Positions 6,481 to 42,789 of a stretch of DNA of 64,000 nt are shown here, one piece after another (the first letter of the stretch is position 1; the number at the start of each line of letters is the position of its first letter). The notes beneath the pieces are model-generated. The model saw nothing but the letters and a program-made list of their open reading frames with translations. It had not been told where the DNA came from and ran no database searches. The stretch is taken from positions 578-64,577 of the forward strand of contig CADCGT010000006.1 of NCBI GenBank assembly GCA_902801125.1, written 5' to 3'. Position numbers and translations under genes: made by a program. This stretch comes from an uncultured Pseudomonadota bacterium. GTDB lineage: Bacteria; Pseudomonadota; Alphaproteobacteria; Rs-D84.

Positions 6481-6561
6481 GCCTGGTTTGGCAAAATTTG
6501 CGAATTTTATTACCCATTGTTTTTACTGTAAAAAAAATTTTTCATTTTTTGAAAAAAGTGG

Positions 6562-17391: not shown

Positions 17392-19536
17392 ATGGCAATA
17401 TCTTTAAAAAACAAATTGTTTGATTACTTTGCACAAAGACATTTTGATTTGATGTCGCCAGAGGTGCGCGCCCGTTTTGACGAATATGCAAAAAATGGTG
17501 ACTTCCAAGGGCATATGAAACATTGGAATGATAATTTTGTAGGCGCAATGACACCGGACTTGGTTAATGTGCCAGCTGGCGGGACCAACGAACATCAGTT
17601 GACGCCAGATGAATGGGAAGAATTGTATGACGCATACCAGGAAGCGTTCCAAAATATGGACGTTGAGAAAGTACCAACTGTTGGTTTCGATAATGAATAT
17701 AAAAAGGCAACTAAGGACTTTATCGCGGAATGGTTTGGTAAATTTGCAGATGGCAAAGTTTTTATACAAAAAGAAGCAACTGTTTTTGCTAACGGTGTTT
17801 TATCGGCAGGAGCAAATAATTTAGCTGATTTTTTAGACGCCAACCCTACATTTAAAGATATATTTAAGAGACACCTCAAAGAAACATTTTCCGATATTAG
17901 TTATGGAGATTTTATAAATGGCTTAAGAACCAGTGAATATAACTCCAATACAAAATTTAGAGACAAGGTTATAGCCGTTGTTGAATACATAAGAGATTAT
18001 GGACCACAAGATGGCTATATTGCACCTGATAAATCAAGGTGGCCCGTCGGTGTAGGGTATGCTCCGCATCCTAATGGCGATGGAACATTTACTGCAACGG
18101 CAATCTCGCCGTTGTTGAATGACATATACACACACCCGGATATTGAATCTTGGTTTGAAATAAATCCGGCACAAAAACCAGTATGTGTTCAACGTTTTAA
18201 GGATAATTACACAAAAATATTTGATACGCTTTTGACCAAATCAAAGGTGCGTGAACATTTTTTTGCGCAAACAAACAATCCAATAATAACAGAACCTTTA
18301 AATGAAGCAATTAAACAAACAGATTACGCAAATAAAGATTCAAAAGATTATGTCCCAGAAAAATATCCTGACGAAAAAACTTGGGTACAAAGAATCCAAG
18401 ATTGGAAGGATGACACGTATGAAAACCATTTTAGGCGTTTTACAAACCCAAGTCGTGGCGCCCGTTTGTTTTTTAGTCCTTGGTCACAAAATATTATGAA
18501 AGCGTTTGATAAAGTGAAGATTAAACCAACTGATGGTCTTGAGGGAATATTATCAAAAAAATCTGAAATTTTGGACAAGTTAAAATCCAGTGCGACAGCG
18601 ACAGATTACTTTAAGTGGTTCACTGATACATTGGAAAAATTGAAAAAAAGCATGCCAGAAGCGATAGAGGGTGCATTGCGTAATGGCGGTCAAATGCGAG
18701 AAGTTGTTTCTGCCATAATGGCAGAAGCCGTTGAGAATGGAAAAATCAAAGAAGCCAAAACAGCTTTAGAAGTTTTATCGGTCGCAAAATACGGTCTATC
18801 AACAAGCAGAACCCTAGATAAATTGAGAGAAGATAAGGAATTATTCAATGTTTTTTCTAATAAAGATTTGTCGTGGAACAAAAACGAAGGTGTTAAATTT
18901 GTCACAAATGCAATTGATAAAACCGTTCGCGCCGGTGTGTTGGGGGTTGGTTTGGCGGCTACCGGGGTACGCAATTTAATATCGCGTCAAAGAGCAAAAA
19001 TTGGAAATGATATATCAAAAAATAAGATTTTGAATGATGCACACAAACATTGGAACGAAGAGGATTTGCAAAAAACTACAACGGATAAACGCGATGAAGC
19101 TACGAGAAATTTGGCAGATTTGGCCGCAGGTATAGGTAAATCTGGAACGGTAATTGCAAATGCGGCTGATTTGGCCGCTGCTGAGGTTGCTTTGGGGGGA
19201 ATGGCCGCAGGACCCGCTCGCGATAATCTAGAGGCAGACATCAAATTGTATAAAGAGTCTATAATAAACCAGCACAATGCAAATCAAGAATTAATTGATA
19301 TTGGTAATCGACAAGCAACTCGTGCGGCCGGCGACGATCCATACCAAGAGTTAGTTGCATATTGGCATATGTTGGAAAATGTCGGAAAAACCCATGCATT
19401 TACACTTGGTAGTATGGCCGTTAAACGCAAAAATATGTTAGAACGGGGTGCATCAGGAAAAAGCAAAGCAGAACAAATTTCTGAACAATATTTGGCTGAT
19501 TGGCGATCTAGATTCGGCGCCCTTAGAACTGCATAA
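17392..19536 (+). CDS. large hypothetical protein (714 aa), AT-rich, no signal peptide; candidate secreted effector
   Basis: Long intact ORF with a terminator just downstream and markedly lower GC than its neighbours. No recognisable catalytic motif. Confidence 0.5.
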   Translation: MAISLKNKLFDYFAQRHFDLMSPEVRARFDEYAKNGDFQGHMKHWNDNFVGAMTPDLVNVPAGGTNEHQLTPDEWEELYDAYQEAFQNMDVEKVPTVGFDNEYKKATKDFIAEWFGKFADGKVFIQKEATVFANGVLSAGANNLADFLDANPTFKDIFKRHLKETFSDISYGDFINGLRTSEYNSNTKFRDKVIAVVEYIRDYGPQDGYIAPDKSRWPVGVGYAPHPNGDGTFTATAISPLLNDIYTHPDIESWFEINPAQKPVCVQRFKDNYTKIFDTLLTKSKVREHFFAQTNNPIITEPLNEAIKQTDYANKDSKDYVPEKYPDEKTWVQRIQDWKDDTYENHFRRFTNPSRGARLFFSPWSQNIMKAFDKVKIKPTDGLEGILSKKSEILDKLKSSATATDYFKWFTDTLEKLKKSMPEAIEGALRNGGQMREVVSAIMAEAVENGKIKEAKTALEVLSVAKYGLSTSRTLDKLREDKELFNVFSNKDLSWNKNEGVKFVTNAIDKTVRAGVLGVGLAATGVRNLISRQRAKIGNDISKNKILNDAHKHWNEEDLQKTTTDKRDEATRNLADLAAGIGKSGTVIANAADLAAAEVALGGMAAGPARDNLEADIKLYKESIINQHNANQELIDIGNRQATRAAGDDPYQELVAYWHMLENVGKTHAFTLGSMAVKRKNMLERGASGKSKAEQISEQYLADWRSRFGALRTA

Positions 19537-23580: not shown

Positions 23581-23606
23581 AAAATGCCCGCAATCGCGGG
23601 CATTTT
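23581..23606. terminator. bidirectional terminator
   Basis: AAAATGCCCGCAATCGCGGGCATTTTT. Confidence 0.8.
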
Positions 23607-25108
23607 TATGCATATTGTTTTTCTTTAACCGAACGCAAGACATGCGATTTACCCTGGCGCATCAATTCATATATTCTGTTTATATTTCCACGACCACCGA
23701 TTTCCATGGCAACCCGTTTAGATTTATTTTGCGCCCTGGCCTTGTCGGCTTTGCATTGTTGCAATTTAGATTCATAAATATTTTTATTAAACCCATTGCA
23801 ATAATTATCAGAATGTTCGATTGATTTTTCGAAATTCTTGATTGCGTTGTCATAATCACCAAGTGCCCAATACGCCAACCCGGCATTATATGTTGCGAAC
23901 ATATATTTTTCACGTTCACCCATTGCAAGCACTTTACGACACAATTCGATACATTCCGTATGACGCCCCAAATGATAAAATGTAATCGCCATATCATTAT
24001 ACAGGTCCGCACTGTTACCATTTTGCGCTATGATTTGCTGATATAAATACATGGCACCACTATAATCCCCGGAATCATATATGGATTGCGCCAATTCGTA
24101 CAAATTGTTACGGTTTTCCATTTCTATAGATGTCTTGGTTGACGAACAAAATGCCAAGACAGCATTTTTATTACCGGTGCTTAACTTTGATACATAGTAT
24201 TTAATCGGATGCCCATTTTTGACAACGTATGTACAGATAGCATTTTTTGCCGCCGATAAATTCTTGTTGGTTAAGCATTTTGAAGCGGCCAAAGTATGAT
24301 AATAAGGCGCGCCAGCCGCAACAGATGTGCCAAGGTGGCCATCTACTTCTAATTCAAATAAATCAAGGCAATAATTGTCATAATTCAGATAAATAAGTGC
24401 TTCGTGGACACGGCGCGGTTCGATTCCGTTCATTTTGATTTGCGTATTCAAAATCTTACGGGCACATTTTTTTGCATCGCCGTAATTGTCTTTAATCTCG
24501 TCACAAAGTTTTCTGCCGATGGCTTCATCATTATAATAAACACTGGCGATTGCCGCAAATTGATTGATGGTTAATTCGGCACCCTTTAAATGATTAAACA
24601 ATTCGTTTAAATGCCGACCATTTTCCATATTTTCAAACCAACCAATACTGCCCGCATAAAGTTCATCTGGGGTCAACTTGCGCGGATTCGCGGCGTTGTG
24701 TGATTCCTTGTACGATTGAACATATTTACTGGTTTTTGTCCAATTGCCCTTGAAATTAAAATCCAGTTTACCATTTTTATTGACACCAAGCCAATACAAC
24801 CCAACGCCGACAGAATTTGCCGGTTTGTCAGAACGCTGTCTATCATTATGAAAATCTTGGCGCCAATTTTCGGTTGAAATCATAGATGCAAAAATGAACG
24901 GCTTGGCCTTGTTATATAACAAATCAAAGTTCGCACGAGTGTCGATTTTATACTTTTTATCAAATTCTGAAGTTTTTTCAACGACAACCTCTGTTGATAC
25001 TTCGTCTTCTTGATTCGAATTTTCGTCTTGATTTTTACAGCCAGCCCCACCCAAGGCAAGCCCACCAAGCAACATTACACCGAATAAATTTTTTTTCATA
25101 TTTGCCAT
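23606..25108 (-). CDS. lipoprotein with C-terminal TPR/Sel1-like repeats; N-terminal module paralogous to 31219..32802
   Basis: Lipobox LGGAGC after the signal. TPR-like YYNAGLAYWALGDYDNAIKNFEKSIE. Segment GVGLYWLGVNKNGKLDFNFKGN resembles VFWLGADNDIKINMKTLNSF in the lysozyme-TPR protein. Confidence 0.6.
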   Translation of the reverse strand: MANMKKNLFGVMLLGGLALGGAGCKNQDENSNQEDEVSTEVVVEKTSEFDKKYKIDTRANFDLLYNKAKPFIFASMISTENWRQDFHNDRQRSDKPANSVGVGLYWLGVNKNGKLDFNFKGNWTKTSKYVQSYKESHNAANPRKLTPDELYAGSIGWFENMENGRHLNELFNHLKGAELTINQFAAIASVYYNDEAIGRKLCDEIKDNYGDAKKCARKILNTQIKMNGIEPRRVHEALIYLNYDNYCLDLFELEVDGHLGTSVAAGAPYYHTLAASKCLTNKNLSAAKNAICTYVVKNGHPIKYYVSKLSTGNKNAVLAFCSSTKTSIEMENRNNLYELAQSIYDSGDYSGAMYLYQQIIAQNGNSADLYNDMAITFYHLGRHTECIELCRKVLAMGEREKYMFATYNAGLAYWALGDYDNAIKNFEKSIEHSDNYCNGFNKNIYESKLQQCKADKARAQNKSKRVAMEIGGRGNINRIYELMRQGKSHVLRSVKEKQYA

Positions 25109-26700: not shown

Positions 26701-26806
26701 ATGATTTTATCATAATATAAAAATTCCTGTCAACAATTTATGCAAATAATTTAAAATTACAAACAAAAACGGACCATTCGGCCCGTTTAATACAAAAACA
26801 AAAATC

Positions 26807-27151
26807 TTATTTTTTCCAAAACGCAAATCCAGAACGTTTTTCTTTATGTTCTTCGTGGCTTTTGCGTTCTTCGCGGGCGCGCCGGCGTTCGGCACGACGT
26901 TCCTGGAATCGTTTTGCCGATTCTTCGTCGCGTTGAATCAATTTGATTGTTGTCACAGATAATTTGCCGTTGCGAACTTCTTCTTCAAATTCCACAATAT
27001 CGCCTTCGTTAAGAAAGCGCAATTCTGCATTTTTCAATGAACTTGAATGAACAAATACATCGTCTGTATTGCCGTCTGCATTTGGCGTGTCCGGCGCAAT
27101 AAAACCGAAACATTTTTTGCCGTTATACCATTTTACTTTACCTTGGCGCAT
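26807..27151 (-). CDS. cspA: cold-shock protein CspA family with a basic C-terminal tail
   Basis: GKVKWYNGKKCFGFIAPD...DVFVHSS are the RNP1/RNP2 motifs of the cold-shock domain. Confidence 0.85.
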   Translation of the reverse strand: MRQGKVKWYNGKKCFGFIAPDTPNADGNTDDVFVHSSSLKNAELRFLNEGDIVEFEEEVRNGKLSVTTIKLIQRDEESAKRFQERRAERRRAREERKSHEEHKEKRSGFAFWKK

Positions 27152-27275
27152 CTTTTATTCCTTTGCTAACCTTGTTTACGATTCAATCGTGGTTGGTTGA
27201 ATCCAATCCAATCTTGTCACAACGAAAAAACAAAATCAAGAAAAAATGTAAAACATTCAAAAGGATATTTATCCA

Positions 27276-28667
27276 TTACCGCTTTTTATTATTATAATAC
27301 CGATATACCGCATTCATTACAAAGTTAAACAGTTGCACCGCCAACGAATCACCCGGCAACGGCGCGCCATCGTGCGCCCGCGGCAAGGCCGAAACCAACA
27401 CAAAACGCGCCATAAAACGGAAAATCGCCATTTGTTGCGTCAAATCCAATTTTGATGAAGAATTTGTTATGTGAAAAATCTCGTTCTTGACGGCGACATC
27501 CAACTTTGCCGTTATCGTATCCAATATACGCGATGGATAATACAGTTTGCATTCACGCGGGAAACCTTCGAACAACGCAACATCGCCGGCGCGACTGTAT
27601 AAAATATTCCACCCCACCCGGTCAAACAAATCGTCAAGGCAACGGCATATCATCAAATTATATTCGCGTATGCCCCTTTCCATAAATTCAGACGATTCTT
27701 GTTCAAGTTTTTTATTTTTCATGTTTGGGTTTTCACGAATCGCGGCATAATAATCATGCGTTTTCCGTTCAAATTCAAAGAATGTTCGAACCTGGCATAT
27801 AATTTCCATTGGAATAATACAATCCGGCGTGCCGATATTCACAATAACCTTGGAATCGCGATAATTGCGCGGATTGCCGATGTCATAAAATTTATCGCGC
27901 ACCGACAATACGCGTTCCGGCATCATAACATTAAGGCGTTCGATAAAAGTGCGCGCCTGGGGTATCAAATCGAACAGGCATTTAACACGCCAAACATCAT
28001 TCAGATATTTATACGGTTTCTTGATTTTATCCAATTCACGAACAATTCTAACCACCAACGCGTCATTACTTTGCCCAAGCACCGACAACACGCCAACCGC
28101 CGCATCCGTCGTATAACGGGACGCAAAATGTTCGCGCACGCGTGCGATAATTGCATCAACATCTATTGATTTATCTGTATCCGATATAACACGCGATACC
28201 GCCGATATAATGTCTTCTATAAAGAAGCGGTAATATTTTCCTGTGACCTTGTCCAGGGCGCGGTCAATATTTTTCTGGGCCGCGACAATAACCGTCACAA
28301 TCGAAGAAACCGACAAATCAATTTTATGCCCCGCCCCAGATGTAAAAAATTGGTTCCGCATAGGGTCCGCATCCAAACGGTGATTGACCAAATACGACGA
28401 AAGCGGATTTATGTCGGCAATCTTGATTGGTTTATCAACCGAAGAATCAGTTATCGGGTCGTATTCGGTCACCGCCGTTTTCGGCGCACCGAAACATTTA
28501 CCAAGGACGTGAAAAACCTCGCGATAGGACCGCATACCATCGGCATAAAGGCGCGACATATAATCCGCCGTTTCATCATTTATGCGCCCGGCCCGCCGCG
28601 CATTTTCAATGATTTCAAGGTTATGCCGGTCGTGGTCTGCGGTCAAAAGGTTTACATCTGTTTGCAT
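27276..28667 (-). CDS. hypothetical protein with a putative RelA/SpoT-like (RSH) nucleotidyltransferase domain, orphan
   Basis: By-eye motif matches to small alarmone synthetases: WRVKCLFDLIPQAR (cf. GRVKxxxSIxxKxxRK), NYRDSKVIVNI (cf. GYRSYHLVV), EIICQVRT (cf. EIQIRT), then F...THDYY. No HD domain and the Mg-binding Asp is not evident. Confidence 0.35.
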   Translation of the reverse strand: MQTDVNLLTADHDRHNLEIIENARRAGRINDETADYMSRLYADGMRSYREVFHVLGKCFGAPKTAVTEYDPITDSSVDKPIKIADINPLSSYLVNHRLDADPMRNQFFTSGAGHKIDLSVSSIVTVIVAAQKNIDRALDKVTGKYYRFFIEDIISAVSRVISDTDKSIDVDAIIARVREHFASRYTTDAAVGVLSVLGQSNDALVVRIVRELDKIKKPYKYLNDVWRVKCLFDLIPQARTFIERLNVMMPERVLSVRDKFYDIGNPRNYRDSKVIVNIGTPDCIIPMEIICQVRTFFEFERKTHDYYAAIRENPNMKNKKLEQESSEFMERGIREYNLMICRCLDDLFDRVGWNILYSRAGDVALFEGFPRECKLYYPSRILDTITAKLDVAVKNEIFHITNSSSKLDLTQQMAIFRFMARFVLVSALPRAHDGAPLPGDSLAVQLFNFVMNAVYRYYNNKKR

Positions 28668-28671: not shown

Positions 28672-30141
28672 CTACTTCATAATCGGGAACAAAATGATGT
28701 CGCGCAATGTCGGTTGGTCGAACACGATACTGGCCAAGCGGTCAATCCCCAACCCCACCCCAGAAATCGGCGGGAACCCATGTTCCATCGCAAGGACGAA
28801 ATCATTGTCGGGGTTGAATGCTTCTTCTTCGCCACCGGCAATACTTTTCGCCTGGTCTTCGAATGCGCGGGCCTGTTGAATTGGGTTGACCAATTCGGAA
28901 TAACCCTTGCATAATTCGCCACCGGCAACCAATAATTGATACATATCCAAACGACGATCGTCTTCATCATTATGCCGTGCCAATGGTACCATATATGTTG
29001 GATAATTGTACAGGATTGTTGGCTGAACAATTTTATCGCGGATTTTCCGTTTGTAAACATAGTCAACCAAGGTCGCCAAAGATTTCAAATCTTCCAATTC
29101 ATCCATTGGGAACATGCCTTCGTCAACCAATTTTTGACGCAAGACATCAACATCATCAAAGTCCAAAATATTGCAACCGAAAAATTCGTTCATTTTCGCG
29201 GTGTAATCTATCATTTCATATTTTGAAAAGTCCAATTTTGTGCCCTGGTATTCAATTTGCAATGTGCCACGGGCGCGCATAATTAAATCTTGGACCAATG
29301 CCCATGTGAATTCAATATTGCGTTTGTAATCCCAATATGCCGCATACCATTCAATCATTGTAAATTCTTGCAGGTGCATCGCATCCATGCCTTCGTTGCG
29401 GAAATCTTTCGCAACTTCGTACACGCGGTCAAATCCGGCACCGATAGCCATCTTTAAGAATAATTCTGGCGATATGCGCAATTGGAAATCTGTATTCAAC
29501 GCGTTGTGATGGGTCGTGAACGGACGCGCCGCCGCACCCGATGCGATGTTTTGCATAATCGGTGTTTCAATTTCCAAGAATCCATGGTCATTCATAAAAT
29601 CACGCAGGTGCTGGGTCATCTTGAACCGCCCAAGCAACGCGTTACGCGATTCTGGATTCGAAATAATATCCAAATAGCGCTGACGATACCGCGTTTCCAT
29701 GTCTGTCAACCCGTGGAATTTTTCCGGCAACGGACGCAAGGCCTTGGCCAAGATTTCATACGCCGCGACACGCACGGTCAATTCGCCCGCCGTCGTATGA
29801 TATAATTCACCGGTAATACCGATAAAATCACCCATATCAACATTGGCCTTCATAAATTTATATTGTTCTTCGCCCAATTCTTCGCGCGACATAGAAAACT
29901 GGATTTCGCCATTTATATCATAAATGCGACCGAACATCAATTTACCCAACCAACGCAGCGCCGTCACGCGCCCGCACAGTTTTACCGCCGTCCCATCCGC
30001 CAATTCGCGGGATTCGGCAATCGTATGTGTGCGGTCAAATTTATCCTTCCATACAACACCATCGCGCGCGCGGATATTTTCCGCCTTTTGCAGCCGGGCC
30101 GTAAGTTCGTTTGTGGACATTGCGGTTGTATTTTCTGACAT
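28672..30141 (-). CDS. lysS: lysyl-tRNA synthetase, class II
   Basis: Class II motifs including GGELCKGYSEL, FELxxNG-like motif 2/3 regions, and an OB-fold N-domain. Start at MSENTT. Confidence 0.9.
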   Translation of the reverse strand: MSENTTAMSTNELTARLQKAENIRARDGVVWKDKFDRTHTIAESRELADGTAVKLCGRVTALRWLGKLMFGRIYDINGEIQFSMSREELGEEQYKFMKANVDMGDFIGITGELYHTTAGELTVRVAAYEILAKALRPLPEKFHGLTDMETRYRQRYLDIISNPESRNALLGRFKMTQHLRDFMNDHGFLEIETPIMQNIASGAAARPFTTHHNALNTDFQLRISPELFLKMAIGAGFDRVYEVAKDFRNEGMDAMHLQEFTMIEWYAAYWDYKRNIEFTWALVQDLIMRARGTLQIEYQGTKLDFSKYEMIDYTAKMNEFFGCNILDFDDVDVLRQKLVDEGMFPMDELEDLKSLATLVDYVYKRKIRDKIVQPTILYNYPTYMVPLARHNDEDDRRLDMYQLLVAGGELCKGYSELVNPIQQARAFEDQAKSIAGGEEEAFNPDNDFVLAMEHGFPPISGVGLGIDRLASIVFDQPTLRDIILFPIMK

Positions 30142-30405
30142 AACTTTTCCTTTTTGTTGTTTAAAAAAACGGGGCACCATAAAAGTGCGCCCGCAAATTT
30201 TATTGTGGTCGCACCGTTATAACAAAGATTTCTTGCCATATTGACGCATTTACTTGTTCCGTGCCTTGGTTAAACACATGCCCCCATTATGGACACTTTT
30301 ATTGCGGTTGTCAAAGGATTTATTTATAAAAATCGCAAAAATTGTCTGGTCTTGATTTTTTACTGCATTTATAATATCCCAACAATAATTTAAAAAAGTA
30401 AACAT

Positions 30406-31218: not shown

Positions 31219-32802
31219 CTATGCATATGTTTTACGCGCGGTGCGATTCATCGGACGTTTTGACATACGCGCCTTTAATTTTTGGGTGCCGGCATTATAG
31301 GCATGGGCCTTGGACTTTGATTTTGTCGTGCGTTCCGTACGCGCCACCGCGGCCGTCGCATCTTTTGATTTGTTCCCATGTGTTATCGCAAGTTTATAAT
31401 TCTTTAATGCACGTTCCGTATTACCTTGGGCCTCGTACGAGACGCCGGCATTATAGTATGCGGCCGCATATTGCGATTTGTCACCAATTCTGCATGTAAT
31501 TTCATGCACGCACGCGATTGCATCATCATATTCACCAAGTTGATTATGCGTTGCCGCCAAATCATTCCAAACCAATGCGTCATCCGGGTGTTCAGATAAT
31601 ATTTTTTCAAATCTCTTTTTTGCAGATTTATATTTGCCACCCTTAAATTCTGCAAGCGCCGTATCGTATTGTTTTTGATACATATCTTGCCGTGCGGCCG
31701 CGAATGTTATTGTTTTGCCATCCGATAATGTCGCCAATGCGTATTCATTACTATTAAATTCCGCCAAAATTTTGGGATTTATTTGTGCCAACAATTCACC
31801 AATAGTTTGTGATTTGAATGGTGTTTTTCCATCACGTGTGACCGGATTTTTAATCCATTCGTTAAACGAATTTAATGTTTTCATATTTATTTTTATATCG
31901 TTATCTGCGCCAAGCCAAAATACTTCGCGTTTTTCCCCCATCATAAGGAAAAATTCGTATATGGCCTGGATAGGCAAATTAAGAAATTCGCGCGGATTTA
32001 TATTTCCCATTAAAATTTGACCCTCAATCCAACGACGCGACCACATGCCACGCCCGCCAACGGTATATAATCCTAATATATCTGCAATTCGTCTGTCCGA
32101 TTCACCACCAATGGCACGCACACCAAACGAACGCGGCGAAACAACCGGATATTTTTCAAAACATTCGCGAACCATTTCCGCCGTCACATTATTTCCGTGT
32201 TTTTTGTATAATTTGCGCAGAGTTTCGTTTCTTTCACGATGATTTTTATCTTTGGGGTCTTCCATAAGTTTTGTTCCCGCATTATAAAACACGGACGCAA
32301 ATGCACATGCATGCGCCGCGTTATCTATGCGCAAATCTGGACAACCGACATCATAGCAATACATCAAAAAATATGTTTCACGGTTTTCTAAAAAGTGTAT
32401 CGATTCATCCCACGCACGCTCAATCGGAATCGGTTTAGTGTTTTTAGTGACTTTTTTACCATCACGTGTTGCAGTAACACCAAAAGCGATTGTCCACACA
32501 CCACGAGAATCTTGGTACGGAACGCAATATTTGCCAGACTTGTCTAATTTTACACCCTCGTTCAAAATAAGTTCTAACATCACATACGGAGTAATCGGTT
32601 TAAGCATATCACGATATTCACCGAATGTTAGATTCTTTTGAATATCTTGTCGTACAGGTGTGATCTGGTCGTATTCCAATGTTTGCGCATCACGTGAATT
32701 TGACTGTTTATTTTTGTTTATTGCGACACCACCCGCAACCAACCCCAATGTTGCGATTCCCAATGCAGATCTTGTAAGTTTTTTCTTGTTCGTCTGATTC
32801 AT
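31219..32802 (-). CDS. secreted GH24 (phage/T4-type) lysozyme-like domain fused to C-terminal TPR repeats
   Basis: LELILNEGVKLDKSGKYCVPYQDSRGVWTIAFGVT aligns with T4 lysozyme [28 protein letters not shown] (catalytic Glu, Asp and Thr positions). Signal/TM N-terminus. TPR-like YYNAGVSYEAQGNTERALKNYKLAI. Confidence 0.6.
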   Translation of the reverse strand: MNQTNKKKLTRSALGIATLGLVAGGVAINKNKQSNSRDAQTLEYDQITPVRQDIQKNLTFGEYRDMLKPITPYVMLELILNEGVKLDKSGKYCVPYQDSRGVWTIAFGVTATRDGKKVTKNTKPIPIERAWDESIHFLENRETYFLMYCYDVGCPDLRIDNAAHACAFASVFYNAGTKLMEDPKDKNHRERNETLRKLYKKHGNNVTAEMVRECFEKYPVVSPRSFGVRAIGGESDRRIADILGLYTVGGRGMWSRRWIEGQILMGNINPREFLNLPIQAIYEFFLMMGEKREVFWLGADNDIKINMKTLNSFNEWIKNPVTRDGKTPFKSQTIGELLAQINPKILAEFNSNEYALATLSDGKTITFAAARQDMYQKQYDTALAEFKGGKYKSAKKRFEKILSEHPDDALVWNDLAATHNQLGEYDDAIACVHEITCRIGDKSQYAAAYYNAGVSYEAQGNTERALKNYKLAITHGNKSKDATAAVARTERTTKSKSKAHAYNAGTQKLKARMSKRPMNRTARKTYA

Positions 32803-34028: not shown

Positions 34029-37000
34029 TTATTGTTCCGTTTTATTCCCAGTTATTGGGTCACGTTCCCCATTTATCAAACCGTCGTCATATGCCGTGTA
34101 TTGTTGACCATTGTACATAAGGTGCAATTTTGACAAAGTGTGGTCAGTGGGACTAAGCCCGACATAATGCACATCATTTTCAGCCAACTTTAAATTGATT
34201 GCCGGGGTCGTTGGCTTGACGGTTTTAGTATACACTACATAATCTCCAAAATGCAATTTGCGACCACAATCAGATTCTTCATCCGCACCATGCCCATATC
34301 CAACAGTTGTTAATCCGGGGGGGCATTCTGTGCGCGTATTATCCCCGGCAGCAGAATAAAAATCCACACCGACCATGGTGCATGACGTATTATTCGCGCT
34401 GTAATACCCCGCATCGCATGACCACGGACAATTGTTTGCCGCTGCAGAACCACTATATGAACTGTTTGCCGGTTTAGTGTTGGTACATGCCGTGCAAGCC
34501 GTTGCACCGGTATCCGCGGTATAGGTCCCAATCTCGCACATAGTGCACGCCATATTACCCGATGATGCTTTATATGTCCCTGCGGCACATGGTTCGCATG
34601 AAACCTTGCCATTCCAAGTTGTCCCATTTGTTGAACCTTCGTAGTTTGTAATATACTGCGTTGTTCCAGCTGGGCACATTGTCACCAAATTTGTTCCAAC
34701 AAACGTATTGCCCCACATATTTGTGTTTTTCGTGCTATCGTTCGCAATCAATCCCGCAAATGTGGTCGGCGGTATATAACCTGCCATATTCGTACAACCA
34801 TTAAATGTGCCATAGAACAAATTCTCTGCAGTTGTGGTTATACCACTAAACAATTCGGCCGGCATCGCGGTTAACCCTGTACATCCGTTAAATGTATCCT
34901 TGAACCAGCCAGTTTTATCGGTTCCACTGGCCGCGCCACTAATAACATCCGCGAACAAATCCGACGGTATTGTGGTCAATGATGTGCATCCCTCAAATGT
35001 GTATTCAAACATATTGGGCACCATTCCAGATGTCGTGATATCATCAAATAAATCGGATGGTATTGATGCCAATGACGAACAATTTTTAAATGTGTTGGCG
35101 AACATATTGGGTATGCCATTAATATTCATTCCGCTAAACAGTTCCGCTGGGACAGAGGCTAGCGACGTACAGTCACTAAATGTATCCCTAAACACACCGC
35201 CAGTACTGGTACCAGAAAGCCTGCTCCAACTTGATGAACTGGCGATAATATCATCAAACAATCCACTGGGAATTGTGGTCAAAGATGCGCAACCGGTGAA
35301 TGTTCCCTCAAACATATTGTCAACCGCGCCACTGGCGCTCATATCATCAAACAACCCACCGGGAATCACGGTCAGCGAAGCACAGTTAGCAAATGTATAT
35401 TCAAACATACCAATACCCAAAGAATCGACATCATCAAATAAATCAGATGGAATCGTGGTCAGTCCCGAACCGTCAAATGTATGATAAAACATGTGCCCCT
35501 GGGTCCTGGTTATGCCATCAAACAATGTACTGGGTATCGTGGTCAGGTTTGTCGCCCCCTTGAATGTTTCACGGAAAAACGGCAAAGCACTATTATTTGG
35601 GGTTGGGAACAACGCGGCCAAAGACCCTGAAACAGATGCGATTTTATCCTGGGTTCCGCCGGTTTGCCCGTAAAAACTTATTGCGGTATGCGACCAATTT
35701 CCATCATATCCCGTGGCAACACCACCAAATTTAATTGTATATGAACCGGTTGTTGCATATGTGTGGGAATACGTGTTTCCGGTTGAACTGGCACGCGTAA
35801 TTGTATCAACGGTGCCATCACCCCAATCTACATAGAACGTTCCAGTTGGTTCCCACATAAAAAATTTAAATTCACTTGTGTTGTTTGTGGTTGTGATGGC
35901 AAATTTTGCGGTCTCGCAAATACCGTCGGCCAAAAATTCATTTGCGGTGCATGCACGACATGCGCCATTATCACTGCCATAGCCCGTGTCACATTGCCAT
36001 GGACAATTATCAATTATCGCAGAACCTGTATAATGGCTGTTTGCCGGCTTATTGGTGCACGCCGTTTGCGTGTTGTCGCCGTTACCGGAATAATATCCGG
36101 TTTCAACCGCGGTGCACGATGTATTGTCCGCACTGTAATACCCCTCATCGCACAGCCATACGCACGCGTCATCAATAACGGACCATTTACTGTTTGCCGG
36201 TGGATCATCGGGGCATGCAACATAACATGATACACGACTACTCCATTCGGTTTCATAGCCAGTGTTATAATCATCCAATCCCGTCGGACAGGATGTGGCA
36301 ACCTTTGTGCCATAAAACGTTTCGGTCCACATATCAGTATCTGTCGGTGAATTGTTCGCAATCAGCCCCGCAAAAGTTGTTGGCGGAATATAACCAGACA
36401 AATTCGTTGCATTCTTGAATGTCGCCCGAAACAGACCAGATGCCGCGTTGGCAATGTTGCTGAACAAATCATCTGGAATTGCTGTTAATGATTTACAATT
36501 ACTAAATGTCTCGCGGAACATTTCGGTTGCACCGGTTGTCACGCCCGAAAACAATCCCGTCGGAATCTTATTTAGCGCATTACACCCATAAAATGTCTGA
36601 TAAAACATGTTCGATGCGTTTACGTTGCCGGTTATCCCAGTGAACAAGCCCGCCGGTATACTGGTCAGGTTGGTTGCCCCTTTGAATGTCTGATAAAAAC
36701 GCGGGTATTGCCCATTTGATGCACTCTTTTGCGGGAATATTGCAGATAACGAACCGGTCATTGATGCAATTTTACTGGCCGTAGGTGCAAAACTTATTGC
36801 GGGTGTAGTGGCAGTGGTATTATACGATGTTGTTGTCCCGGCAAACTTTACCGTGTGCACACCTGCGGTCGGCCAAGCACATGAATAGGTCTGTTTCGTA
36901 GTATTGGTGCGTGTGATGACCGTTCCAGCCGCATTATTGTCACCACTATACGTGGTCTGGGTCAACACACCATCGGTGCCACAATCAACATAGAACGTGC

Positions 37001-38075
37001 CAATCGCAGATATGTCAAACCGCAGTTCCGTCGTATCGGATGTTGTAGTTACGGTAAATTTATCCTGAAATTCGCATACACCATTTTCCATAACATAATT
37101 ATCATCGCACTCATACGGGCACGAATTAGATGTGGCGGACGCGGTATAGTGTGTGTGTATCGGAGCATTTGTACACATAATGCGGGTACTGGTAGAACCG
37201 TAGTTAGTAAGCGAAGCATTGGAATAGTATCCCACGCCGACATCCGAACACCCACCCGCCACGGGACCTGCTTCAAATGCGCCATTACCGGTCTTGAACG
37301 CATTTTGCTTCATATCATACACCCCTATCACATTATCGCTGTTGCGGCGGGCGGCGACAAAATTATGGACCAACACACCATCCTCGTACACTTGCAAGTC
37401 ATAAATACGCCCCTTGAACGAACGTGCCGCTTGTTTGTTACCAGCATCAAAAAGGTGAATTGTGGTGGCTGACTCTGCTATTTTACCTCCCTTAAAAGTG
37501 TCGGATTTGCTTCGCCCATCGTCGTATATTAATTCACGTGTGCCATTTGTTAACACATACTCAATTTGATGGACAGTTCCCGCCGTCATCGGATATACCG
37601 GACCTTCTAATCGGCTGCCTGATGACTGGGTCCACAATTTGAAATATGCGTTCCAACCAACTGAATACCCACCAGTTGCCTGGTTTCCGATAAAATTGAT
37701 GTTTGAACTGTTGGGTAAATCACTTGACACGCCGACACGCAATACACCACGAATTGTGGTCGCACTCGCGTTATGCGAGAACTCGGTATCAATCAGTTTG
37801 CCGTATGGGTTTTCAATGTACTCCAATCGGGTATATTCGGTTGAACCAAGGGCTGCGGGAGTCGCAATGAATGTTCCGGCGGCACAACTTCTTTTACAAT
37901 CAACCGCACTGGTTTTGATGTCGTTTGGATTGGCCGTGTATCCAGAGGGGCATTCAATACAGCTATCGCTGGAGGCATCATAATAGGTCGCGCCGGTACA
38001 CGTCGTATCAGCGTAAGCTATACCGATAAACAGAGTTATTATTGGTATCAAAAGAGCCCTAAAAATACCTTTCAT
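34029..38075 (-). CDS. giant secreted surface protein (1348 aa): GCC2/GCC3-like Cys-rich modules plus DUF285/BspA-like repeat arrays
   Basis: Signal peptide MKGIFRALLIPIITLFIGIAYA. C..C..GTY and CDxGYYS..NTSC modules. More than 10 copies of an about 25-aa repeat MF..TF..C.SLT.IP..LF. Confidence 0.75.
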   Translation of the reverse strand: MKGIFRALLIPIITLFIGIAYADTTCTGATYYDASSDSCIECPSGYTANPNDIKTSAVDCKRSCAAGTFIATPAALGSTEYTRLEYIENPYGKLIDTEFSHNASATTIRGVLRVGVSSDLPNSSNINFIGNQATGGYSVGWNAYFKLWTQSSGSRLEGPVYPMTAGTVHQIEYVLTNGTRELIYDDGRSKSDTFKGGKIAESATTIHLFDAGNKQAARSFKGRIYDLQVYEDGVLVHNFVAARRNSDNVIGVYDMKQNAFKTGNGAFEAGPVAGGCSDVGVGYYSNASLTNYGSTSTRIMCTNAPIHTHYTASATSNSCPYECDDNYVMENGVCEFQDKFTVTTTSDTTELRFDISAIGTFYVDCGTDGVLTQTTYSGDNNAAGTVITRTNTTKQTYSCAWPTAGVHTVKFAGTTTSYNTTATTPAISFAPTASKIASMTGSLSAIFPQKSASNGQYPRFYQTFKGATNLTSIPAGLFTGITGNVNASNMFYQTFYGCNALNKIPTGLFSGVTTGATEMFRETFSNCKSLTAIPDDLFSNIANAASGLFRATFKNATNLSGYIPPTTFAGLIANNSPTDTDMWTETFYGTKVATSCPTGLDDYNTGYETEWSSRVSCYVACPDDPPANSKWSVIDDACVWLCDEGYYSADNTSCTAVETGYYSGNGDNTQTACTNKPANSHYTGSAIIDNCPWQCDTGYGSDNGACRACTANEFLADGICETAKFAITTTNNTSEFKFFMWEPTGTFYVDWGDGTVDTITRASSTGNTYSHTYATTGSYTIKFGGVATGYDGNWSHTAISFYGQTGGTQDKIASVSGSLAALFPTPNNSALPFFRETFKGATNLTTIPSTLFDGITRTQGHMFYHTFDGSGLTTIPSDLFDDVDSLGIGMFEYTFANCASLTVIPGGLFDDMSASGAVDNMFEGTFTGCASLTTIPSGLFDDIIASSSSWSRLSGTSTGGVFRDTFSDCTSLASVPAELFSGMNINGIPNMFANTFKNCSSLASIPSDLFDDITTSGMVPNMFEYTFEGCTSLTTIPSDLFADVISGAASGTDKTGWFKDTFNGCTGLTAMPAELFSGITTTAENLFYGTFNGCTNMAGYIPPTTFAGLIANDSTKNTNMWGNTFVGTNLVTMCPAGTTQYITNYEGSTNGTTWNGKVSCEPCAAGTYKASSGNMACTMCEIGTYTADTGATACTACTNTKPANSSYSGSAAANNCPWSCDAGYYSANNTSCTMVGVDFYSAAGDNTRTECPPGLTTVGYGHGADEESDCGRKLHFGDYVVYTKTVKPTTPAINLKLAENDVHYVGLSPTDHTLSKLHLMYNGQQYTAYDDGLINGERDPITGNKTEQ

Positions 38076-38242: not shown

Positions 38243-38327
38243 CTACTTCGGTGGCACATGCCACCTCGCCTCGCAACTCGCCCCTTTGCCGACAAAATCA
38301 AAAACCGCCCTTTCGGGTGTTTTTTTA
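38243..38327. repeat. left direct repeat of the tRNA-Gly-associated islet (copy of the about 110-bp unit without the tRNA-end segment)
   Basis: TACTTCGGTGGCACATGCCACCTCGCCTCGCAACTCGCCCCTTTGCCGACAAAATCAAAAACCGCCCTTTCGGG is about 97 percent identical to the units at 40941..41155. Confidence 0.75.
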
Positions 38328-40814
38328 TTGTGGTTTTCGCCCATCCCGGCCAATACTTTTGACCAATTTTTTTTGCTCTAATTTACGTGTTATTTTACTG
38401 AATAAATTTTCTTGTAATTTCTTTTTGGCGACAATAAAAGGATTTTGTTTTATTATTTTAATTCTGTGCCTTGGCAAATCAGCTATGGCGACATCTATAC
38501 CATGTATTTTGCATTTTTGTCCTTTGATTTGTTTATAAATTGGCCAACTTAATTTTATACTTTTTACATTGGTAAAATCGGCATTATGCAGTTTCAATTC
38601 GGCAACATCGCTGAAATCTAAATCACCCGATAGTTTGGCCCAGGACAAATTTACATATCCATCCTTTAAATTGAAAATTGGGTTCAAATTTGCATTTCTT
38701 AAATCGGCCCCCGTTAAAGACACAAAACATGGATAATCCGCATCATCAATATCACCCATAAACATCGCATTGGGATTAAACTTTATACCGGTAACACTGG
38801 TCAAATCGGCATAACTTAGGCGAACCACCCCTATATCACTAAAATCCCAATCACCCGCCAACACGGCCCCTTTCAGGTTCACAAACTCTTTGTCCGGGAA
38901 TATTATTTCTGTGACCTGGGTTAAATCAGCGTGCATCAAATTAAATTTTTTGACATTGCTGAAATCCCACTTACCCCCCAATTTGGCATATTCTAAATCT
39001 ATATTTTCTGAATCCGGAAATTTGATACTAGTGACCCGGGTTAAATCGGCACCTGATAATCTTACCTGTTCGCAATTGCTAAAATCCCAATTGCCCGCCA
39101 ACACGACACCATATAAATCCACAAATCCAGTATTTGGAAACTTTATGCTGTTAACCCTCGTTAAATCCGCATTTTGTAAATCTATATTATCCATATCCAT
39201 ATTGCTGAAATCCAAATCTCCGGATAATTTCGCATAAGACAAATCTATCATATTAGATCGTCGGTTAAATTTTATATCTGTGACATCGGTTAAATCGGCA
39301 CCACACAGAGTCAATAATTTTACATTGCTGAAATCTAAACCGCCCGATAATCTTGTTCTCGTAAGGTTTACTATATAACCATATGGATTAAATTTTATAC
39401 TGGATACACCGGTTAGATCTACCCCCCTTATATTTAAACTATCTACATCACTAAAATCCGGATTGCCCAACAGTTTAATTTTCGTTTCATCAAGTGTTAT
39501 TGCATCGGCATTCGGATTAAATTTTATATCTGTGACATCGGTTAAGTCGGCCTCACTCAAATCCAATGTTTTAACATTGCTGAAATCTAAACTGCCCGAT
39601 AACTTTATGGTTTTGTTTAATATGATTGACGCAGCGTTTGGATTAAACTTTATACCTGTGACATTGCACAAATCCAATTTTTTCAAAATAAGGTGTTTGA
39701 CACCGCTGAAATCCAATTCACCCGATAATTTTACACCCCGCATAGAATCAAATTGCACCTTGCGCCATGTCGACATATTTACAAATGTTATCGCCCCATC
39801 GGTAACATCCATAAATCGTTCACCATCCAATAATATGGTTTTTGTTGTCCCTTTGGCGCCGATTACCTTTATCTTTTTACCATGGATATATTTATTCAAA
39901 GCATAACACATTTCGGAGTCAGCACCCGCAACAGATATTATTTGACTGTTATCATGCGCCATATTTAAAATAAAACCATCGTAAAACAATAACTGGCTGC
40001 CATCGTCTTTAAGTTTTGTAATCGTACTGCCACTGAAATAATAATCGGGCCCAAAATAGATATTGTTTGTTTCATAATTGAATCGCACCAATTGGTCATT
40101 TACCATACGGAAATTGTCCGGCAATTGACTGTTGGTCGTATTAAATTCAACATGAAAATATTTTTTAAGCGCATCGCTTAATCCCGGAATAATATTGTCC
40201 GGGTTGTTACCAAATGTTGCATCTGGATTGGCAATCGTGTGATTATAGCGATTCTTTATTGATATAAATCCACCACTTCTGGCAATTTGAATCGATATAA
40301 CCGATGTTCCATATTCATCCTGGCGTTCAGGTTTGTCTGATGGTTGAATATGCCATTTTTTTGGTGACAATTTATCATCGCCCAACACTTCTTTTTTGAT
40401 GGCGTGTATCATATAATAGTTTATGTGCCGCTCTGGGTCACCAAAAGTGCACAATCTCTCATTTGGACGATAATACTTTTCAATAGAATTTTTTTGTTGT
40501 TCGGTTTTAACAACGAACGCCTCATAGCCGGCATCGCTTAATAATTGTAGCGGATTTTTGGTTGTTCGGGACACAGATCTTTCTTTGGACAAATAAATTT
40601 CTTGGATGACCTTGCGTAATTGTCTTGCTTCATCTGGATTTCGACCCGCAAATTCTAATATGTGCAAAATATTTGGAATGGCACATAAATCCCCATTGTG
40701 ATCTTCGTCCCCACGCATAATTTTGGCAAAAGTTTCCCCATGTTGCTTTTTTAATTTTTTGAAAATTTCTTCTGTATTTATATCGACCATTTGTGTTTTC
40801 CCTGTTGCGAACAT
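38325..40814 (-). CDS. pentapeptide-repeat protein (829 aa), AT-rich, no signal peptide; effector-like
   Basis: N-terminal 350-aa unique domain, then about a dozen about 40-aa units (...LSGxLDFSNVKxLxLxxADLTxVTxIKFNPNA...) built from A(D/N)LxX pentapeptides. Basic C-terminal tail. Confidence 0.7.
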   Translation of the reverse strand: MFATGKTQMVDINTEEIFKKLKKQHGETFAKIMRGDEDHNGDLCAIPNILHILEFAGRNPDEARQLRKVIQEIYLSKERSVSRTTKNPLQLLSDAGYEAFVVKTEQQKNSIEKYYRPNERLCTFGDPERHINYYMIHAIKKEVLGDDKLSPKKWHIQPSDKPERQDEYGTSVISIQIARSGGFISIKNRYNHTIANPDATFGNNPDNIIPGLSDALKKYFHVEFNTTNSQLPDNFRMVNDQLVRFNYETNNIYFGPDYYFSGSTITKLKDDGSQLLFYDGFILNMAHDNSQIISVAGADSEMCYALNKYIHGKKIKVIGAKGTTKTILLDGERFMDVTDGAITFVNMSTWRKVQFDSMRGVKLSGELDFSGVKHLILKKLDLCNVTGIKFNPNAASIILNKTIKLSGSLDFSNVKTLDLSEADLTDVTDIKFNPNADAITLDETKIKLLGNPDFSDVDSLNIRGVDLTGVSSIKFNPYGYIVNLTRTRLSGGLDFSNVKLLTLCGADLTDVTDIKFNRRSNMIDLSYAKLSGDLDFSNMDMDNIDLQNADLTRVNSIKFPNTGFVDLYGVVLAGNWDFSNCEQVRLSGADLTRVTSIKFPDSENIDLEYAKLGGKWDFSNVKKFNLMHADLTQVTEIIFPDKEFVNLKGAVLAGDWDFSDIGVVRLSYADLTSVTGIKFNPNAMFMGDIDDADYPCFVSLTGADLRNANLNPIFNLKDGYVNLSWAKLSGDLDFSDVAELKLHNADFTNVKSIKLSWPIYKQIKGQKCKIHGIDVAIADLPRHRIKIIKQNPFIVAKKKLQENLFSKITRKLEQKKLVKSIGRDGRKPQ

Positions 40815-41284: not shown

Positions 41285-42682
41285 TTAAATTCGACCCATA
41301 TTTTGACGCATCAAATCGGGCGTAATAGACCAATCCAAATCAATTTCTGGTTCCCAACCACCCGGTGTTTTATACCACATTTTTCCATTTTTTACCAAAT
41401 CGGTCAGCATTTTACGCAACAACGAATATTCCGGATTTTGTTTTAGTTTTTCTATTGCCTTGGCACATTCTTGATTTAAACGCGCGGAATTACGACGCAA
41501 TGTTATGTCCAAGTATGGATTATATGCCCGAATGCCGCCACGTTCCAACATATCGGCAAAATCCAAATCTTTTTGTAATTGCGATTCCAGCGTACCACTT
41601 ACGTCATTTGGATATTTGTTATTAAATTCCCTTGCCAAATAAACGTTGTTTCGTATCATTTTAATATATTTATCCAAATCGTCCACATATGATTGATACA
41701 CATCAACCATGGAATCGCCCATAATAAATTGCGGGGAAATGTATTTATGAACACACGCATCATAAATTTCACCAATATCACCCGTATTACACAAATGTAT
41801 TAAATCAAGGTAACGCAATCCGATTTGCTCGAATTCGCGTTCCAGTGTGCCGGAATGTCCTTTGTTATCACCAGTTGCACTGATTCCATGGGCCACCGCA
41901 TTATTCGCAACCGTATTAGAAAATTCATTTTCGTGTGCATAAACATATTGATAACCCATTTTATCCATCGCCATACGGACAACGGCCTCACGCAGGAAAT
42001 TTGTTAAAATAACCATCCGGGATTCTTCAAGCAATCCGCGAATAAACATGCGTTTGTCTTGCGCGGCATTATATACACGCCTTACGTATTCGTCGCGCAA
42101 CAAATTTTCCATTTCGTATTCGGTCAATTCGGCATTTGCATATTTTTCATATTCTTGACGAGATGATAATGGAACGAGTGATAAAATTGTTTCTATTTCT
42201 TGGTCTGTGAATTTATCTGTTTTATATGTAGATACATGTTCACCAATATTAAATAATCGACCATTATCGGGCCTTATAATATGTGTTGTTTCCGGCAGTA
42301 TCAAACCAGTATCGGGGTTTGGAATAAAAAATGTATCTTCGGATGCAACCATTCGCGGGTTTCCGTTTTTGGCAACAATATCGTTATACGGTGCCAAAAC
42401 CACAATTGGGGACGCATCCCAATTTCCACCCATGTGACTACTTACAATTTGATTCAATGTGAAATGGACCGTGGCACGCGCGTATTTATATCCTGTTGCC
42501 ATACCCGTGGTTGGGATATACACATTACCGTTTCGGTCGCGACGCGGCATATAATTTGTTGCATGCACACACAACCATTTATCCATATTGCCCGCCACAG
42601 AAAAATCCGAAGAATTAACAAAATATCCACGTCCATCTTGCATCAATTCTAATGCATCTTTGAAATCATTGATTTTTGCCAT
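41285..42682 (-). CDS. hypothetical protein (about 465 aa)
   Basis: Start at MAKINDFKD; the 5' extension of the ORF would overlap the upstream gene. No motif I can assign. Confidence 0.45.
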   Translation of the reverse strand: MAKINDFKDALELMQDGRGYFVNSSDFSVAGNMDKWLCVHATNYMPRRDRNGNVYIPTTGMATGYKYARATVHFTLNQIVSSHMGGNWDASPIVVLAPYNDIVAKNGNPRMVASEDTFFIPNPDTGLILPETTHIIRPDNGRLFNIGEHVSTYKTDKFTDQEIETILSLVPLSSRQEYEKYANAELTEYEMENLLRDEYVRRVYNAAQDKRMFIRGLLEESRMVILTNFLREAVVRMAMDKMGYQYVYAHENEFSNTVANNAVAHGISATGDNKGHSGTLEREFEQIGLRYLDLIHLCNTGDIGEIYDACVHKYISPQFIMGDSMVDVYQSYVDDLDKYIKMIRNNVYLAREFNNKYPNDVSGTLESQLQKDLDFADMLERGGIRAYNPYLDITLRRNSARLNQECAKAIEKLKQNPEYSLLRKMLTDLVKNGKMWYKTPGGWEPEIDLDWSITPDLMRQNMGRI

Positions 42683-42789
42683 TTTAGTTCCCTTTCTCTG
42701 CACCGAAATTTTATCATAAATCGGGCTATAATTCAAGCATGTATCATTTAAAAACCGCCCGGATGGGCGGTTCGTTTTATCGTTGTTGG

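Follow-up and report, generated by a model that had tools for sequence, protein, structure and literature searches.

The window analysed here is a stretch of 64,000 nt from an alphaproteobacterium of the order Rs-D84 (assembly GCA_902801125.1, contig CADCGT010000006.1, positions 578 to 64,577 of the forward strand). It contains an ATG-start open reading frame (ORF) of 463 codons on the minus strand, here called gene X, whose product (X) we predict to be a divergent member of the RelA/SpoT homologue (RSH) superfamily built around a synthetase (SYNTH) domain. The gene and the features around it, in window coordinates, are:

30286..30314, minus strand: promoter-like site TTGACA-17-CATAAT (11/12) upstream of lysS, candidate operon promoter (consensus scan only)
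28672..30180, minus strand: lysS, class II lysyl-tRNA synthetase (Pfam tRNA-synt_2, E 2e-71, and tRNA_anti-codon)
27276..28667, minus strand: gene X, 463-aa protein of predicted divergent RSH fold (ORF call; stop codon 27276-27278)
27093..27282, minus strand: X-csp intergenic region with a weak, sub-threshold likeness to the cspA thermoregulator 5' untranslated region (Rfam RF01766)
26807..27151, minus strand: csp, cold-shock-domain gene downstream of X (Pfam CSD, E 2e-15)
26767..26788, minus strand: terminator-like hairpin followed by a T-run directly past csp, candidate operon end (consensus scan only)

Four nucleotides separate the lysS stop codon from the start codon of X (junction ...ATGAAGTAG TAAA ATGCAA), and the consensus scan flagged no terminator in this junction or in the spacer between X and csp. 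The RF01766 match, weak at 26.3 bits where the gathering score is 78 (E 5e-4), spans that spacer and the 5' end of csp; it suggests that csp may have its own regulatory leader despite the absence of a terminator between X and csp. We found no plausible antitoxin ORF beside X, the 124-nt X-csp spacer having only spurious ORFs of 25-44 aa. In a Pfam scan of the window, lemA follows csp on the same strand, and no secretion-system genes adjoin X, its neighbours being lysS, csp and lemA. A preliminary description of this DNA, made from the letters by eye, had reported a 463-aa ORF between lysS and a cold-shock gene, lacking an adjacent antitoxin-like gene and a hydrolase (HD) domain; all of this agrees with the gene calls and domain scans.

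The X protein has no significant match in Pfam, NCBIfam, PADLOC or PHROGs, and its distant relatives were scanned with the same result. Pfam and NCBIfam detect no domain at all in X, including the HD hydrolase, TGS, helical, ZFD and ACT/RRM domains of long RSH proteins, and Pfam gives no zinc-finger-like domain. The RSH synthetase profile itself, PF04607 (RelA_SpoT, gathering threshold 27 bits), does not match X even at E<=10; 3 of 43 family members, all distant ones, give sub-threshold PF04607 matches of 10.8-15 bits on the homologous segment. Searches of PDB sequences returned only designed helical repeats with the single sequence and a phosphomevalonate kinase (E 0.5) with the family profile, both of which we dismissed as noise. 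A homologue search seeded from the distant clade recovered 18 proteins, none with a Pfam annotation, and no bridging family.

Profile-profile comparison does recover a relationship. We aligned the family profile with hhalign to seven RSH SYNTH sequences whose texts were checked against PDB entries (RelQ 5ded, 2be3, 3l9d, RelSeq 1vj7, and Rel of S. aureus, B. subtilis and M. tuberculosis). Residues 208-306 of X align to residues 53-155 of RelQ with E 2e-4, and deleting an insertion at residues 143-207 gives a probability of 80% and E 1.4e-5. The alignment made without deletion (E 2e-4) scores 37.6 in hhalign. For 30 column-shuffled controls the mean is 14.3 (sd 2.3, maximum 19.2), about 10 sd lower, and the reversed profile scores 14.6. 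Identity of X to RelQ and RelP is 12-18%.

The predicted structure points to the same superfamily. An AlphaFold2 model of X, built from 43 sequences, has a predicted local distance difference test score (pLDDT) of 89.3 and a predicted template modelling (TM) score of 0.87. Foldseek of this model against the PDB gives 28 matches at E<=1e-3, and the top 50 are all RSH synthetase domains. The best match is RelP 6ewz (E 4.5e-5, probability 1.0, TM score normalised by target about 0.5), and RelQ 5ded_H aligns to the X model over 125 columns, the root-mean-square deviation being 3.2 A. The other PDB matches are RelQ 5ded/5dec/5f2v, SAS2 6fgk, the 2be3 and 3l9d proteins, CapRel 9erv/7ztb, an exported small alarmone synthetase (SAS) 8vx3, FaRel 8pu1 and Rel 7oiw/1vj7/8acu, the Rel structures standing lower in the lists. 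In a library of viral structures (BFVD) the X model matches phage RelA/SpoT, YjbM-like and Tas1 proteins.

A member of a sister clade, P0154 (607 residues, 23% identity to X), was modelled independently (pLDDT 78), and RSH SYNTH domains again make up the whole of its 49 best PDB matches (RelP, E 9.8e-6). The two clades align to each other in hhalign over residues 9-314 of X (probability 99.7%, E 9e-27).

We took a five-stranded mixed sheet flanked by helices to define the SYNTH fold, both Foldseek queries being predicted models. In the X model, DSSP assigns beta 123-128, alpha 134-142, five inserted helices within 144-221, beta 226-232, alpha 235-248, beta 253-258, beta 272-277, beta 286-293, alpha 294-312 and alpha 319-357. 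This predicted topology is the SAS order, beta-alpha-[insertion]-beta-alpha-beta-beta-beta-alpha-alpha. We consider it highly probable that X belongs to the RSH superfamily at the level of fold, as the preliminary description had proposed from motifs; the structure and profile searches that it put forward as a check give matches (Foldseek E 4.5e-5, hhalign E 1.4e-5), and both the X model and the sister-clade model match RSH SYNTH domains only. The annotation is one that sequence methods missed and that structure prediction recovers.

The layout of X on this fold, with residue conservation taken from 84 orthologues, is as follows, the Enterousia clade being the one to which X belongs:

28302..28667, minus strand: N-terminal region, residues 1-122, three helices and a beta-meander, family-specific (DSSP, 84 orthologues)
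28344-28382, minus strand: invariant HRLDADPMRNQFF motif within the N-terminal region (conservation, 84 orthologues)
28242..28301, minus strand: strand and helix IVTVIVAAQKNIDRALDKVT, residues 123-142, proposed donor triphosphate site (RSH beta1/alpha RxKxxxSxxxK)
28005..28241, minus strand: helical insertion, residues 143-221, between the putative phosphate-binding helix and the Mg-Asp strand (DSSP)
27732..28004, minus strand: predicted catalytic core beta-alpha-beta-beta-beta-alpha, residues 222-312 (hhalign against the RSH set)
27981-27998, minus strand: D224-V-W-R227-V-K229, Mg-Asp strand
27849-27875, minus strand: G-loop NPRNYRDSK with Y269
27783-27806, minus strand: E288-I-I-C-Q292-V-R294-T, EIQIRT counterpart with a 2-residue insert
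27747-27761, minus strand: T-H304-D-Y-Y307
27597..27731, minus strand: loop and long helix, residues 313-357, ending in invariant RVGWNILY (DSSP helix 319-357)
27279..27596, minus strand: C-terminal helical region, residues 358-463, Enterousia-clade-specific (DSSP; sister-clade homology ends at about 314)
27294-27305, minus strand: conserved C-terminal R-Y-Y tail, residues 455-458 (conservation)

The N-terminal region is conserved in the sister clade also, being covered by the hhalign alignment over residues 9-314. The insertion comprises the helices 144-164, 170-183, 189-197, 202-213 and 218-221 and counts about 80 residues versus about 12 in RelQ; its length varies in distant relatives, where the alignment has large variable gaps, and it is the least conserved part of X among the orthologues. 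Residues 313-357 are likely the counterpart of the SAS C-terminal helix, and a low-stringency hhalign alignment reaches RelQ residue 203. The isoelectric point of X is 8.5, the insertion and the C-terminal region being basic. We describe X as a stand-alone SYNTH domain of pyrophosphokinase type that lacks a hydrolase domain and is elaborated at its N-terminus in a family-specific way, by the insertion, and by helices at its C-terminus.

In RSH synthetases an Asp and a Glu are the Mg2+ ligands, the terminal phosphates are bound by two lysines, the donor adenine is sandwiched between two arginines called 'highly conserved', and the acceptor base stacks on the G-loop Tyr (PMC5794853, PMC7983052, PMC11782079); the G-loop is the beta3-beta4 loop that bears this Tyr (PMC5794853). 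The acidic pair is D264/E323 in RelSeq, D107/E174 in RelP and D72/E139 in RelQ (PMC5794853, PMC7983052). The adenine-sandwich arginines are R46/R77 in RelQ, R241/R269 in RelSeq and R64/R95 in FaRel2, the donor motif RxKxxxSxxxKxxR lies on the beta1/alpha unit (K80, S84, K88 and R91 in RelP), and the acceptor-stacking Tyr is Y116 in RelQ and Y151 in RelP.

The hhalign alignment places D224 of X on RelQ D72, the Mg-binding Asp of DxxGxR, and on the same strand R227 falls on G75 (the canonical Gly position) and K229 on R77 (an adenine-stacking Arg). R257-D258 corresponds to R105-D106 of the RxKD/DYI region; in the G-loop, Y269 corresponds to the Tyr Y116, R270 to R117 and K273 to H120. Within the EIQIRT motif E288 takes the position of the Mg ligand E139, Q292 of Q141, R294 of R143 and T295 of T144. 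With the insertion deleted, K132 aligns with K48, R136 with S52, K140 with K56 and A130 with R46. Here Q131-K132-xxx-R136-xxx-K140, after strand 123-128, would take the place of RxKxxxSxxxK, with G143/K144 in place of the last Arg. The N-terminal segment alone gives the same beta1 register, weakly (E 0.3).

This register corrects part of the preliminary description. Its four peptides occur in the order it gave (WRVKCLFDLIPQAR at residues 226-239, NYRDSKVIVNI at 268-278, EIICQVRT at 288-295 and THDYY at 303-307), and its pairing of NYRDSK with GYRSYH and of EIICQVRT with EIQIRT agrees with hhalign. WRVKCLFDLIPQAR, which it had taken for a G-loop-like RxKxxxSxxxK motif, lies one structural element off and is, from both the alignment and the topology, the Mg-Asp strand (DxxGxR) plus the next helix. 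The DxxG Mg site that it could not discern appears as D224 in DVWRVK, aligned with RelQ D72. Its specific ground for suspecting a pseudo-enzyme, the missing Mg site, fails because the Mg-binding Asp is present and invariant.

Conservation follows the predicted active site. D224 and E288 are invariant in 84/84 orthologues and in 43/43 sequences that include the distant clade, and so are K132, R136 and K140. R227, R270, K273, Q292, R294 and H304 are invariant in the 84 orthologues, and most of the catalytic residues listed here are kept in the distant clade also. Y269 is found in 83/84 orthologues, the surrounding loop N265-P-R-N-Y-R-D271 being described as wholly invariant. The position of A130 is occupied by Ala in 78, Ser in 4 and Gly in 2 of the 84, and K229 is present in 83.

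A pseudo-enzyme would explain some of these features by another route. X would then have lost pyrophosphokinase activity and either sense a nucleotide that it binds or have a structural or regulatory role beside a partner such as lysyl-tRNA synthetase (LysRS) or the ribosome. The replacement of the stacking arginines by A130 and K229, the change of the canonical Gly to R227, the 2-residue insertion in the EIQIRT strand, the long insertion adjoining the donor site and a divergence too great for PF04607 would all fit such a loss. Retention of D224, E288, K132, K140 and Y269 in the 84 orthologues and the distant clade is hard to explain without catalysis, and R227, at +3 from D224, could take over base stacking because it lies on the same strand face as the canonical Arg at +5. 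We regard loss of activity as unlikely.

The acceptor side of the predicted site offers a further clue. R257, K259, R267, R270 and K273 form a dense, invariant basic cluster round Y269. A large positive patch by the G-loop Tyr is reported to distinguish alarmone synthetases from the tRNA-modifying toxic SAS (toxSAS) FaRel2 (PMC11782079). The cluster round Y269 resembles the alarmone-synthetase pattern and, at sequence level, favours a nucleotide as the acceptor.

The preliminary description had called X an orphan, a term that does not hold: we find 612 homologues at E<=1e-3, every named one of which is a 'hypothetical protein', and a scan of one genome per species finds relatives in 270 genomes. 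X is unannotated rather than orphan. When 1.84 billion representatives at 50% identity were searched with HMMER, filters off, only 36 clusters emerged, and the family is therefore narrow. The best 80 of the 270 genomes, on which our synteny counts rest, are Candidatus Enterousia or 'uncultured Alphaproteobacteria/Rickettsiales' metagenome-assembled genomes (MAGs) of rumen and gut origin, and include one closed 958,618-bp chromosome. Relatives at 19-41% identity that have a source name also come from MAGs of Alphaproteobacteria. Enterousia belongs to the order Rs-D84, whose genomes are smaller than 1 Mb and for whose members an obligate life as symbionts or parasites of other cells is predicted (PMC12306168).

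Of these 80 genomes, about 76 have lysS directly upstream of X in the same orientation and about 74 have csp downstream on the same strand; lysS-X-csp synteny is kept in about 95% of the loci. Among the 84 orthologues 117 of the 463 positions are invariant, and pairwise ratios of nonsynonymous to synonymous substitution rates (dN/dS) are 0.04-0.14, with dS close to saturation. Because of this synteny, the invariant positions and a dN/dS of about 0.1, gene X is a core gene under strong purifying selection in the Enterousia clade. One alphaproteobacterial lysS-X-csp block, at 61% identity to X, is in a bin labelled Bacteroides fragilis (L035, CAVGNU010000014.1); this contig is probably mis-binned.

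We set aside adjacency to lysS as evidence of function, since it is missing in more distant relatives. The relative at 39% identity (L087) is in the context of a U32 peptidase gene, that at 35% (L088) of ruvB and a CdiA_C-like gene, and that at 23% (L004) of flagellin and Sel1-repeat genes. The linkage is probably a synteny specific to the Enterousia clade, and we give it little functional weight because the distant relatives sit in unrelated contexts. In the L088 locus, the gene with the CdiA_C toxin-domain match encodes 117 aa (4379-4732) and lies 270 nt upstream of the 35% identical RSH-like gene (P0129).

The operon bears on a second use of the same fold, namely pyrophosphorylation of an RNA, for example at the 3'-CCA adenosine of tRNA. 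X would then restrain translation as a regulated housekeeping function linked to LysRS and Csp. The fold and catalytic residues fit this also, CapRel and FaRel structures are among the fold matches, and SYNTH domains are known to modify tRNA, as in FaRel2, CapRel and PhRel2 (PMC11782079, PMC11559606). The protein is basic in its insertion and C-terminal regions, and in about 95% of Enterousia-clade genomes its operon partners are a tRNA synthetase and an RNA chaperone; relatives at 35-39% and 23% identity no longer have the lysS linkage. The known tRNA-modifying RSH proteins are patchily distributed toxins with an antitoxin, in some cases fused, whereas X is a core gene with no partner. At sequence level the cluster round Y269 also looks like that of alarmone synthetases and not like the smaller FaRel2 patch (PMC11782079). 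We consider an RNA target unlikely.

The same distribution weighs against a toxin. X might be a toxSAS of the CapRel type, a fused toxin-antitoxin or antiphage system in which the C-terminal region auto-inhibits the active site; fused systems need no separate antitoxin gene, and CapRel 9erv and 7ztb and FaRel 8pu1 are among the Foldseek matches. The pZFD antitoxins block the ATP site of toxSAS by a tyrosine 'YXXY' plug (PMC11782079), to which the C-terminal R-Y-Y tail of X is at most loosely similar by analogy; the family consensus C-terminus is R-Y-Y-(K/N)-K. There is no PADLOC match, no zinc-finger-like domain and no relative in 2.9 million viral contigs (IMG/VR scan). The family occurs in 270 species-level genomes and has a fixed place among housekeeping genes, and its dN/dS of about 0.1 and 117 invariant residues are unlike the fast evolution and patchy occurrence of defence genes. 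Genomes smaller than 1 Mb rarely keep dispensable cargo (PMC12306168). A toxic role, which the preliminary description had entertained, is on this evidence very improbable.

Export of X is the least probable of the alternatives, and we think it a remote one. X would be an alarmone-synthetase effector delivered by a symbiont or parasite into neighbouring or host cells, as the preliminary description had also suggested. Rs-D84 bacteria are predicted to depend on other cells (PMC12306168), exported SAS enzymes exist and can be without immunity genes (PMC12691689), and the exported SAS 8vx3 is among the fold matches. By simple hydropathy X has a polar N-terminus and no signal peptide or transmembrane segment, with a maximum 19-residue hydropathy of 1.34. 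Pfam and NCBIfam give no secretion-associated domain, the adjacent genes are lysS, csp and lemA with no secretion system, and the sequence is very strongly conserved.

The reading that we prefer, with a probability of roughly 0.5, is that X works in the cytoplasm as an active housekeeping pyrophosphokinase and makes an alarmone. We predict that X would bind a nucleoside triphosphate donor with Mg2+ and transfer the donor's beta,gamma-pyrophosphate to a purine nucleotide that stacks on Y269, at its 3'-OH. This would yield an alarmone, most likely guanosine tetra- or pentaphosphate ((p)ppGpp), possibly the adenosine analogue (p)ppApp. X may be co-transcribed with lysS and is probably translationally coupled to it, in which case it would be made constitutively, and the added N-terminal, insertion and C-terminal parts might serve for post-translational control. 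The donor-base pocket appears to be remodelled by A130 and K229, together with R227 at the canonical Gly position. Because A130 and K229 replace arginines and R227 replaces Gly, the geometry of donor binding or the identity of the donor may differ from known RSH enzymes.

Several points speak against an active alarmone synthetase. PF04607 misses X even at E<=10, hhalign probabilities are only 46-80%, and the beta1 register appears only on deletion of residues 143-207, so that part of the alignment depends on that deletion. A130 and K229 align where known enzymes have the adenine-stacking arginines, and the EIQIRT strand has two extra residues, I290 and C291. The lysS linkage, being probably clade-specific, says little on function. 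A constitutive synthetase without a hydrolase would be expected to be harmful, and we see none in the window: it holds no canonical RSH, (p)ppGpp hydrolase or canonical DksA, covering about 7% of a genome of about 0.9-1 Mb. The window does contain a 265-aa ORF (57574-58371, plus strand) whose first 30 residues form a DksA/TraR-type C4 zinc finger, CSMCGRP...CAKC (zf-dskA_traR, E 4e-8), followed by a long lysine/asparagine-rich extension without a family match; this is not the canonical DksA architecture, and the ORF may be relevant if the lineage uses (p)ppGpp.

A broader form of the alarmone-synthetase reading is tentative and rather doubtful. The family of X would be an unrecognised RSH subfamily and the main, perhaps the only, alarmone-type synthetase of the gut symbionts with reduced genomes that make up Rs-D84. 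Its donor pocket, re-engineered by A130, R227 and K229 in place of R, G and R, would take a different donor or give a non-canonical product. A fixed stoichiometry with LysRS would couple signalling to lysyl-tRNA charging or to LysRS-derived Ap4A (diadenosine tetraphosphate).

RSH enzymes have a central regulatory part in bacterial growth and persistence, in toxin-antitoxin systems and in antiphage defence, and the catalogues of them rest on sequence profiles. The family of X is invisible to RSH profiles, yet it is a strongly conserved core gene across an order of uncultured gut and rumen bacteria with genomes below 1 Mb, and we did not find it described in the literature searched. If X is active, symbionts with minimal genomes keep nucleotide-alarmone chemistry by means of a non-canonical enzyme. 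The known range of SYNTH-domain sequences and architectures would then extend to one that has a large insertion by the donor site and other residues in place of the 'strictly conserved' adenine-stacking arginines, and X would give a concrete target for the study of donor and acceptor specificity in RSH evolution.

Elsewhere in the window, two paralogues of about 500 aa flank the operon region (23606-25108 and 31219-32802, both minus strand) and match each other in BLASTP with E 1e-13 over their tetratricopeptide repeat (TPR) part; both have a hydrophobic or lipoprotein-like N-terminal start, an unassigned middle and C-terminal TPR repeats. There are five large, little-annotated proteins that are probably surface proteins, a striking load for a genome smaller than 1 Mb:

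4696-6387, minus strand: 563-aa YadA-anchor autotransporter
17392-19536, plus strand: 714 aa, no Pfam match
34029-38075, minus strand: 1348 aa, one Ephrin_rec_like repeat
38325-40814, minus strand: 829 aa, pentapeptide repeats
41285-42967, minus strand: 560 aa, no match

A serine resolvase/invertase gene (6498-7298, plus strand; Pfam Resolvase, E 1e-29) adjoins a gene for an NAD-dependent DNA ligase and is possibly a mobile-element remnant in an otherwise housekeeping region.

Among known systems, the best structural matches of X are RelQ and RelP (SAS1 and SAS2; 5DEC, 5DED, 6EWZ, 6FGK). Like X they have a single SYNTH domain without a hydrolase, the same beta-alpha order and a long C-terminal helix, and RelQ has the aligned Mg ligands, G-loop Tyr and the Gln and Arg of EIQIRT, together with the phosphate lysines to which K132 and K140 putatively correspond. 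X has 463 aa versus about 210 aa in RelQ and RelP, and unlike them has an N-terminal elaboration of about 120 residues, the insertion of about 80 residues and a C-terminal region of about 105 residues. Relative to RelQ, R46 and R77 become A130 and K229, G75 becomes R227, S52 becomes R136 and EIQIRT gains two residues; in comparison with RelQ and RelP there is no sign of a tetramer or of allostery by pppGpp.

The toxSAS, CapRel, FaRel2 tRNA pyrophosphokinases and the (p)ppApp synthetases Tas1/Apk have the SYNTH fold in common with X, and CapRel resembles X in combining SYNTH, N-terminal helices and a C-terminal region of regulatory type in one polypeptide. Unlike toxSAS and Tas1, X has no antitoxin gene, pZFD, PAAR domain or secretion context, and it is not toxin-like in distribution or evolution. 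The strictly conserved donor residues R64, G93 and R95 of FaRel2 are altered in X. Long RSH proteins (Rel, RelA, SpoT) have a homologous SYNTH domain in which the (R/K)-D of RxKD/DYI aligns with R257-D258, and the H-x-x-Y spacing of the Rel HWAYK motif resembles THDYY of X; X lacks their HD, TGS, helical, ZFD and ACT/RRM domains and has about 60% of their length.

The sister clade, from other uncultured Alphaproteobacteria (P0154/P0168 of about 600 aa, P0150/P0156 of about 460 aa), is homologous to X over residues 9-314 and has the same invariant KxxxRxxxK, DxxR, Y-(R/Y)-D-x-K and E..Q..TH..Y motifs and the predicted RSH fold, the beta-alpha unit of its model bearing invariant K185xxxR189xxxK193. 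Its genes of 590-610 aa (L004 6001-7800; P0154, P0157-P0173) follow two flagellin genes and precede a Sel1-repeat gene. Unlike X, the sister clade keeps a canonical EIQ(L/I)K without the 2-residue insert and has different C-terminal domains. The fold and the chemistry are known from these systems; what is new in X is a Pfam-invisible, unnamed family with a distinct architecture and a predicted remodelling of the donor pocket.

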